This document shows positions 31,970-33,009 of a DNA stretch of 38,479 nucleotides, piece by piece (position 1 is the stretch's first letter; each line of letters starts with the position of its first letter). Made by a program: the position numbers and the translations under genes. The stretch is from the IMG/VR virus record IMGVR_UViG_2880372215_000012. One strand, 5' to 3'. The notes beneath the pieces are model-generated. The model did not search any database, was not told the DNA's origin, and saw nothing but the letters and a program-made list of their open reading frames with translations. The stretch comes from a virus (taxonomy: Duplodnaviria > Heunggongvirae > Uroviricota > Caudoviricetes).

Positions 31970-32171
31970 CTTTTTCCTCGTGCATCGAGCTATTCGAATC
32001 GCTCATCAGCTCTGCGCAGCAGTGCTCACACACGTGAACTTCCAGCACATGCAGCTTCTGACCGCAGTTAGCGCACGTTAAAGCCCGCTCGACGCTTTCT
32101 TGTTCGTAACTTCGATTTTGGTCAATCACCTTGTTTTCCTCGCACAATGTCTTAGCCACCGGATATCCCAC
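31959..32171 (-). CDS. ninF: NinF
   Basis: ..[34 protein letters not shown].. matches lambda NinF; the N-terminus differs. Confidence 0.75.
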
Positions 32172-32308
32172 AGGTGAGCCGTGTAGTTGAAGGTTTTTAC
32201 GTCAGATTCTTTTGGGATTGGCTTGCGTTTATTTCTGGAGCGTTTCGTTGGAAGGTATTTGCAGTTTTCGCAGATGATGTCGGTGAAACTTCGTCGCTGT
32301 CGTCTCAT
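32126..32308 (-). CDS. ninE: NinE
   Basis: [56 protein letters not shown] matches lambda NinE; start taken at Met 32308. Confidence 0.8.
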
Positions 32309-32334
32309 GCCGCCCTGTCTCCCCATCGCGCTTT
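32309..32334. other. Deletion junction: the ninE upstream region abuts bet codon ~47; the whole immunity/replication region is missing
   Basis: Lambda bet homology begins abruptly at about 32335 (..[15 protein letters not shown]..) with no upstream start codon, and ninE starts 27 bp away on the opposite strand. In lambda these points are about 9 kb apart. Confidence 0.6.
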
Positions 32335-33009
32335 CATGCCAGCGATGCGCAGTTCATCGCATTGTTGATCGTCGCCAACCAGTACGGCCTTAATCCGTGG
32401 ACGAAAGAAATTTACGCCTTCCCTGATAAGCAGAACGGCATCGTTCCGGTGGTGGGCGTTGATGGCTGGTCCCGCATCATCAATGAAAACCAGCAGTTTG
32501 ATGGCATGGACTTTGAGCAGGACAATGAATCCTGTACATGCCGGATTTACCGCAAGGACCGTAATCATCCGATCTGCGTTACCGAATGGATGGATGAATG
32601 CCGCCGCGAACCATTCAAAACCCGCGAAGGCAGAGAAATCACGGGGCCGTGGCAGTCGCATCCCAAACGGATGTTACGGCATAAAGCTATGATTCAGTGT
32701 GCCCGTCTGGCCTTCGGATTTGCTGGTATCTATGACAAGGATGAAGCCGAGCGCATTGTCGAAAATACTGCATACACTGCAGAACGCCAGCCGGAACGCG
32801 ACATCACTCCGGTTAACGATGAAACCATGCAGGAGATTAACACTCTGCTAATCGCCCTGGATAAAACATGGGATGACGACTTATTGCCGCTCTGTTCCCA
32901 GATATTTCGCCGCGACATTCGCGCATCGTCAGAACTGACACAGGCCGAAGCAGTGAAAGCTCTTGGATTCCTGAAACAGAAAGCCACTGAGCAGAAGGTG
33001 GCAGCATGA
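32335..33009 (+). pseudogene. bet: bet (Red-beta recombinase) 5'-truncated remnant, missing about 46 N-terminal codons and its start
   Basis: Translation from 32335 matches lambda Bet residues ~47 to the end; the ORF-track TTG start at 32362 is an artefact. Confidence 0.85.

Follow-up and report, generated by a model that had tools for sequence, protein, structure and literature searches.

The joint between positions 32335 and 32336 of the window (the whole 38,479-nucleotide stretch analysed here), where the last base on the ninB side meets the first base on the bet side, is most likely (probability about 0.93) the scar of one illegitimate, i.e., non-homologous, deletion of 7,432 bp in the prophage Sp3/CP-933K on the lineage to typical Escherichia coli O157:H7. 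Judged from its sequence, the window is this defective lambda-like prophage of O157:H7. It matches O157:H7 chromosomes at 99.75–100% identity and Sakai Sp3, labelled 'prophage Sp3, lambda-like phage' in the Sakai RefSeq record, at 99.98% over 9,631 bp and 100% over 3,243 bp, and the near-identity includes the annotated bet pseudogene. The element is integrated between ybhC and ybhB/bioA, at the lambda attachment site: int adjoins ybhC and, at the far end, nleD adjoins ybhB-bioA in TR01, Sakai, CB9615, 493/89 and LSU61. The window is bounded by two stop codons, that of nleH1-1 at its start and that of int at its end, and its gene order is nleH1-1, nleC, nleB2; tail, head and terminase genes; lysis genes; an intact Q; lpxR; a lambda-type Q stub; a NinI-type phosphatase, ninG, ninF and ninE; the joint; a truncated bet (bet'); exo; small b-region genes; xis; and int.

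The joint was located from abutting BLAST segments against 2B8, CB9615, 493/89 and LSU61 and by base-by-base comparison of the endpoints. The flanking segments neither overlap nor leave a gap, and the joint, which in lambda orientation reads ...GCTGGCAT on one side and GAAAGCGCG... on the other, is blunt, lacking both filler and microhomology (0 nt). A search for microhomology or repeats at the deletion endpoints returned none at the joint and only chance 6-mers within 40 bp on either side, and no IS remnant was found at the joint. It lies in unique, non-repeated sequence, and its two sides have no homology to each other.

On one side of the joint, homology to bet of lambda, 434 and 2B8 starts exactly at 32336 and extends to the stop codon ending at 33009. 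What remains is a pseudogene (32336–33009, plus strand) without the first 112 nt of the gene, i.e., codons 1–37 plus 1 nt, that encodes Bet residues 39–261. In tblastn searches these residues of lambda Bet match the window at 99.6% identity, and residues 1–38 have no match in it. Between a stop at 32284, upstream in the bet frame, and position 32449 there is neither an in-frame ATG nor a GTG, and the possible starts in that stretch are limited to two TTG codons, both internal to the coding sequence and both lacking an obvious ribosome-binding site. Thus, bet has no usable start codon, and the original prediction that bet homology begins mid-gene without one is borne out; re-alignment recovered no intact start or N-terminus, the first 37 codons being gone. 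RefSeq describes bet as a pseudogene 'missing N-terminus', and Sakai bet (ECs_0810) is a pseudogene inside Sp3. The match to the Bet/RecT single-strand annealing protein family (Pfam PF03837) begins at profile position 28 of 198, and neither a complete N-terminal annealing domain (lambda Bet 1–177) nor a start codon is present. In the solved N-terminal annealing domain of Bet, residues 1–178 (PDB 7UJL), the deletion takes the first 37 residues. The neighbouring exo (33006–33686, plus strand, 226 codons) is intact, with 98.2% tblastn identity to full-length lambda Exo, and is now without its partners bet and gam. More speculatively, an N-terminally truncated Bet, if expressed, might interfere with the Red systems of co-resident prophages.

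On the other side, ninE (32126–32308, minus strand) is intact, with 60 codons, a full-length match to the NinE family (Pfam PF05322, E = 1e-41, profile positions 1–58 of 58) and a protein accession, WP_001254218.1, that it shares with the undeleted orthologues described below. Its start codon is separated from the first bet base by 27 bp (32309–32335), just the distance first noted between the two genes on opposite strands. This stretch is made up of the final nine codons of ninB. Alignment to the ninB-ninE regions of 2B8 and CB9615 delimits a ninB 3' stub (32305–32335, minus strand) that consists of 1 nt, nine codons (KARWGDRAA) and a TGA stop overlapping the ninE ATG (ATGA). The gap seen by the earlier reader lies inside ninB, which places the right-hand deletion endpoint within that gene. 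The joint also creates a new ATG on the minus strand (GGC/ATG AAA GCG..., window 32305–32337), which starts a mini-ORF of 10 codons in the former ninB frame; the TGA of this mini-ORF overlaps the ninE start codon. Given any transcript, this mini-ORF could in principle couple translation into ninE.

Lambda was tried as the yardstick for the joint and dropped, since it gave a misleading size of 9.4 kb and left a 34-bp 'non-homologous' patch without counterpart beside ninE. Nin regions of the 2B8 and phage 21 type, and finally the true orthologues, removed both difficulties: against 2B8, phage 21 and HK022, in which ninB directly abuts ninE, homology continues through the 34-bp patch up to 32335. 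In the lambda alignment proposed as a check of the original prediction, the joint corresponds to the interval 32699–42096 (9,398 bp); the equivalent interval on 2B8 is 7,242 bp.

Three strains, O55:H7 CB9615, sorbitol-fermenting O157 493/89 and O157:H7 LSU61, carry the orthologous prophage undeleted at the same ybhC site. Exactly at the joint, and with the same two endpoints, they hold an extra 7,432 bp (CB9615, locus L007, 20624–28055), 7,432 bp (493/89) and 7,430 bp (LSU61); nothing in the window corresponds to the CB9615 segment. The flanks of the joint in these orthologues are, on both sides, 98.7–99.9% identical to the window. For CB9615, window positions 10394–32335 align with L007 50000–28056 at 99.7% identity and positions 32336–33926 with L007 20623–19033 at 99.87%. 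The proteins Int, Xis, Exo, NinE, the phosphatase and Q have the same accessions in the orthologues and in the O157 prophage. The loss therefore measures 7,432 bp against an ancestor-like prophage; the roughly 9 kb initially proposed holds only on lambda coordinates (about 9.4 kb).

The lost interval begins with the first 112–113 nt of bet and continues with gam, kil, cIII, an ea10-like gene, ral and N (PF25694); its middle holds hicA, a DUF1902 (HicB-like) gene, cI (HTH_3 + Peptidase_S24), cro (HTH_3) and cII; and its far end comprises O (PF04492), P (PF06992), ren and all but 31 nt of ninB. The assignments of N, HicA, cI, cro, O, P and NinB were confirmed with Pfam. The list of losses first drawn up is thus right in naming gam, kil, cIII, N, cI, cro, cII, O, P, ren and ninB (lost almost entirely), and wrong in naming rex, ninC and ninD, which were absent from the ancestor. 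The loss of pL and pR was correctly anticipated, as the N-cro region lies in the deleted interval of the undeleted orthologues. The hicA toxin gene and its DUF1902 partner lie between N and cI, where lambda has rexAB (CB9615 L007, 23464–24056; 493/89 L008, 10268–10860; LSU61 L009, 10265–10857), and were lost with the deletion. The bet gene of 493/89 and LSU61 is intact at 786 nt; that of CB9615 (L007 19950–20736) is annotated as frameshifted and has 787 nt, its additional base falling among the first 113 nt, which typical O157:H7 has lost.

When lambda and 2B8 early proteins were compared with the window by tblastn, the only matches were to int, xis, exo, Bet 39–261, NinE, NinF, NinG, NinI and a 25-residue Q stub; no match was found in the window for gam, kil, cIII, N, rex, cI, cro, cII, O, P, ren, ninC, ninD or ninH. 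Among the small unassigned ORFs, Pfam and PHROGs searches brought up no hidden repressor or replication gene, their matches being limited to a TciB-like moron, a TraR-type zinc finger and families of unknown function. Nor does the NCBI PGAP annotation of the complete TR01 orthologue contain a gene for a repressor or for replication. The statement that the window lacks a repressor, N and replication genes accordingly withstood all of these searches.

Several components of a self-sufficient temperate lambdoid phage are missing or damaged: (i) a CI-type repressor and Cro, with their operators and promoters, are absent from the window and lie in the deleted interval of the orthologues. (ii) The replication initiator O and the helicase loader P are absent and lie in the same interval. 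(iii) The early antiterminator N is absent, and the N peptide gene (PF25694) is found in the CB9615 deleted interval. (iv) The integrase-excisionase pair is incomplete, with xis intact and int frameshifted in both the window and Sakai. That the element cannot be a self-sufficient phage is seen directly from the undeleted orthologues and agrees with the published immobility of Sakai Sp3, for which no circularisation, replication or packaging was detected (Asadulghani 2009, PMC2669165). The same study describes Sp3 as lacking CI/Cro and O/P, with a disrupted Exo-Bet-Gam system, and scores it as having no repressor, anti-repressor or replication functions and as defective in integrase and general recombination.

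The two gene blocks left by the deletion had also been described as divergent and promoterless. The native promoters are indeed lost, and a crude consensus scan found no promoter-like site near the joint (31900–32800). Across 28000–38479 the scan returned 15 sites, compared with 16.9 expected by chance, and the weak 9-of-12 matches inside exo and ninG occur at chance frequency. A chance-level scan is compatible with promoterless blocks and is no proof of absent transcription, which we infer, and pR', downstream of Q, is unaffected by the deletion. Read-through, or trans-activation by Q proteins from the many other prophages of O157, might still supply some transcription.

The distribution of the joint was assessed with an 80-bp probe centred on it, searched against 5,426 complete E. 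coli genomes. The probe matches once each in 296 of them, always on the chromosome and in 295 cases at an identity of at least 99%, which confirms the junction in complete genomes that include long-read assemblies. Carriers include Sakai and EDL933, and among the matches listed (60) every strain with a stated serotype is O157.

Other origins of the joint were weighed against a single deletion. The short form might be ancestral, with O55:H7, 493/89 and LSU61 having gained the 7.4-kb early region, e.g., by homologous recombination with a superinfecting lambdoid phage. The supplement of Zhou 2010 (PMC2806823) reads in this direction: it enters the difference as 'Indel 24, CB9615, ins, 985624, 7432, Ep4 part', pairs Ep4 with Sp3 and CP-933K under the note '7.4kb ins', and, comparing Ep4 with Sp3, records a recombinant tract of 4.4 kb in the former. 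The position and length of Indel 24 are those computed independently here (L007 20624–28055, 7,432 bp). However, a bet without its start and first 37 codons and a 31-nt ninB stub are deletion products and not a native arrangement, and the long form is found in three separate early-branching lineages, an outgroup distribution that refutes a gain. Nyong et al. (PMC7175801) position LSU-61 between O55:H7 and the point at which O157 divides into non-sorbitol-fermenting and sorbitol-fermenting branches; a literature search on Sp3 in LSU-61 and 493/89 found nothing. A recombination tract flanking the indel was considered and rejected: SNPs between the window and CB9615 form a dense cluster in the tail genes, at 10.4–11.5 kb and 20 kb from the joint, whereas the joint flanks contain only 5 SNPs within ~650 bp on either side. 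The flanks hold no dense SNP tract and hence give no indication that sequence was swapped by recombination at the joint. On the strength of the decapitated bet, the ninB stub and the three early-branching intact lineages, we conclude that the event was a deletion in O157:H7 and not an insertion in O55:H7, the latter being very improbable.

It is unlikely, too, that the present joint was made by several successive deletions, or by insertion of IS629 and a subsequent deletion as the element was excised. IS629 is active in the same prophage (33927–35236), the IS-excision enhancer encoded by O157 is reported to cause deletions next to IS629, and a blunt joint without microhomology fits many routes. 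Yet neither an IS remnant nor filler is present at the joint, the same joint recurs in all 296 genomes, and no intermediate occurs among the 17 genomes with the full immunity region. As only the final joint is visible, deletion in a single step cannot be proven. An artefact of assembly or prophage extraction, with two lambdoid prophages collapsed on shared repeats, would be conceivable in principle in O157 genomes, which carry many near-identical lambdoid prophages and in which bet and ninE each match several places. This explanation is already refuted, and its probability is vanishingly small: the same joint appears once each in 296 independently finished genomes, long-read assemblies included, and it lies in unique sequence whose two sides share no homology.

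The genes retained next to the joint are those of a lambda-like nin region. Besides ninE, the block comprises ninF (31959–32129), ninG (31346–31966) and the NinI-type Ser/Thr phosphatase (30684–31349), which together span 30684–32129 on the minus strand and were identified by tblastn with lambda proteins and from annotation, and ninF also with Pfam NinF. The intact late antiterminator Q (28351–29040, minus strand; Pfam PF06323, E = 1.7e-91) is parted from this block by the annotated lpxR moron (lipid A deacylase; 29513–30472, plus strand) and a 25-codon lambda-type Q stub (30613–30687), which matches lambda Q residues 1–25 in tblastn. From the phosphatase onward, window positions 28351–30687 thus present a lambda-type Q stub, lpxR on the opposite strand, ylcG and then an intact Q of a different type. 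This mosaic joint is older, and the undeleted orthologues have it too. At the other end of the window, three type III effector genes lie on the minus strand, nleH1-1 (1–882), nleC (1710–2729) and nleB2 (2763–3743), and nleD is just outside the window (in TR01); the four are cargo kept by the grounded prophage.

Further damage is unevenly distributed among strains. While xis (37217–37435) is intact, int (37413–38479, plus strand) has a 4-nt deletion near 37476, a gap at 37476 relative to CB9615, and tblastn splits Int into two frames. The frameshift is common to Sakai (pseudogene ECs_5702) and absent from TR01, CB9615, 493/89 and LSU61, where int is intact; it is therefore younger than the early-region deletion, and an excision defect arising from int is not universal, given the intact int of some strains (e.g., TR01). 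An IS629/IS1203 element (33927–35236, minus strand, 1,310 bp) with a 3-bp target duplication interrupts a DUF1382 (lambda orf63-like) gene, and the window segments flanking it overlap by 3 bp when aligned to TR01 and Sakai. This insertion is a later, strain-level event, found in only 3 of the 5,426 complete E. coli genomes (FORC_044, AR-0428 and NCCP 15739); as it is otherwise absent, the window comes from that group or a close relative. In the head region, the portal gene is split in O157 (window 20256–21837, two CDS in TR01, with a 1-nt indel at 20740 relative to CB9615), whereas CB9615 (L007 38630–42110) has an intact portal and a protease/major capsid fusion gene with an internal stop. With the portal broken in O157 and the protease/capsid fusion broken in CB9615, the head region has decayed independently in two lineages.

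The deletion most likely took place on the branch to typical non-sorbitol-fermenting O157:H7, after the split from O55:H7, 493/89 and LSU61; it begins at codon 38 of bet and stops nine codons short of the end of ninB. The control regions between cI and cro and upstream of N, corresponding to pL/oL and pR/oR/pRM, were lost too, leaving two outward-facing blocks, bet'-exo...xis-int and ninE-F-G-phosphatase...Q, with their native promoters gone. From lambda biology, these blocks would have no native expression route without pL, pR and N, and in the absence of N antitermination there would be no normal route to Q and late-gene expression. The lambda ori lies inside O, and a prophage lacking O, P and the origin should not replicate. 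Similarly, the loss of cI would abolish both immunity and SOS induction, and Red recombination would be lost. The prophage would then be locked in the chromosome as a cargo carrier, with nleB2, nleC, nleH1-1 and lpxR in the window and nleD outside it, and the int frameshift, the portal defect and the IS629 insertion in the window's strain represent later decay. The molecular route by which the deletion arose, the lack of transcription over the joint and a possible selective advantage are all inferred.

A further-reaching proposal, which we consider rather doubtful, is that the deletion was a clade-defining 'grounding' event, positively selected on the stem of typical non-sorbitol-fermenting O157:H7, that fixed nleB2/nleC/nleH1-1/nleD and lpxR. 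The SOS-inducible repressor, kil, N, O/P and the HicA toxin module would then have been lost in one step, and the polarity given by Zhou 2010 would have to be reversed. As for the deletion itself, both it and its consequences are already published and present in database annotation; the feature is real, ordinary and already known. The present analysis adds the base-exact position of a blunt, homology-free joint, the ancestral content, with hicA/DUF1902 and without rex, ninC or ninD, and the polarity and rough timing of the event. The joint could serve as a simple lineage marker. Beyond bookkeeping its significance is small, Sp3/CP-933K being the textbook defective prophage of O157.

Sp3 corresponds to CP-933K of EDL933 (Zhou 2010, PMC2806823), and Sakai Sp3/CP-933K is the same element as the one in the window, with the same bet pseudogene and ybhC site and, in Sakai, the same int frameshift; the window copy differs in its extra IS629/IS1203 in the DUF1382 gene. 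The prophages of CB9615 (Ep4), 493/89 and LSU61 share the integration site, gene order and cargo with the window prophage but keep the early region, i.e., gam, kil, cIII, N, hicA/DUF1902, cI, cro, cII, O, P, ren and ninB. Among phages, lambda (NC_001416) and 2B8 (NC_049952) have int-xis-exo-bet and ninE-F-G-phosphatase blocks that are collinear with the window at 96–99.6% identity. In 2B8 ninB directly abuts ninE, as in the ancestor-like orthologues, whereas lambda has rexAB, ninC, ninD and ninH, which the window's prophage lineage never had. The cryptic lambdoid prophages of K-12, DLP12, Rac and Qin, are also grounded remnants that have lost modules for immunity, replication or other essential functions and persist carrying host-beneficial genes. 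They differ from Sp3 in being other elements at other sites with different, mostly larger losses, whereas the late region of Sp3 is nearly complete.
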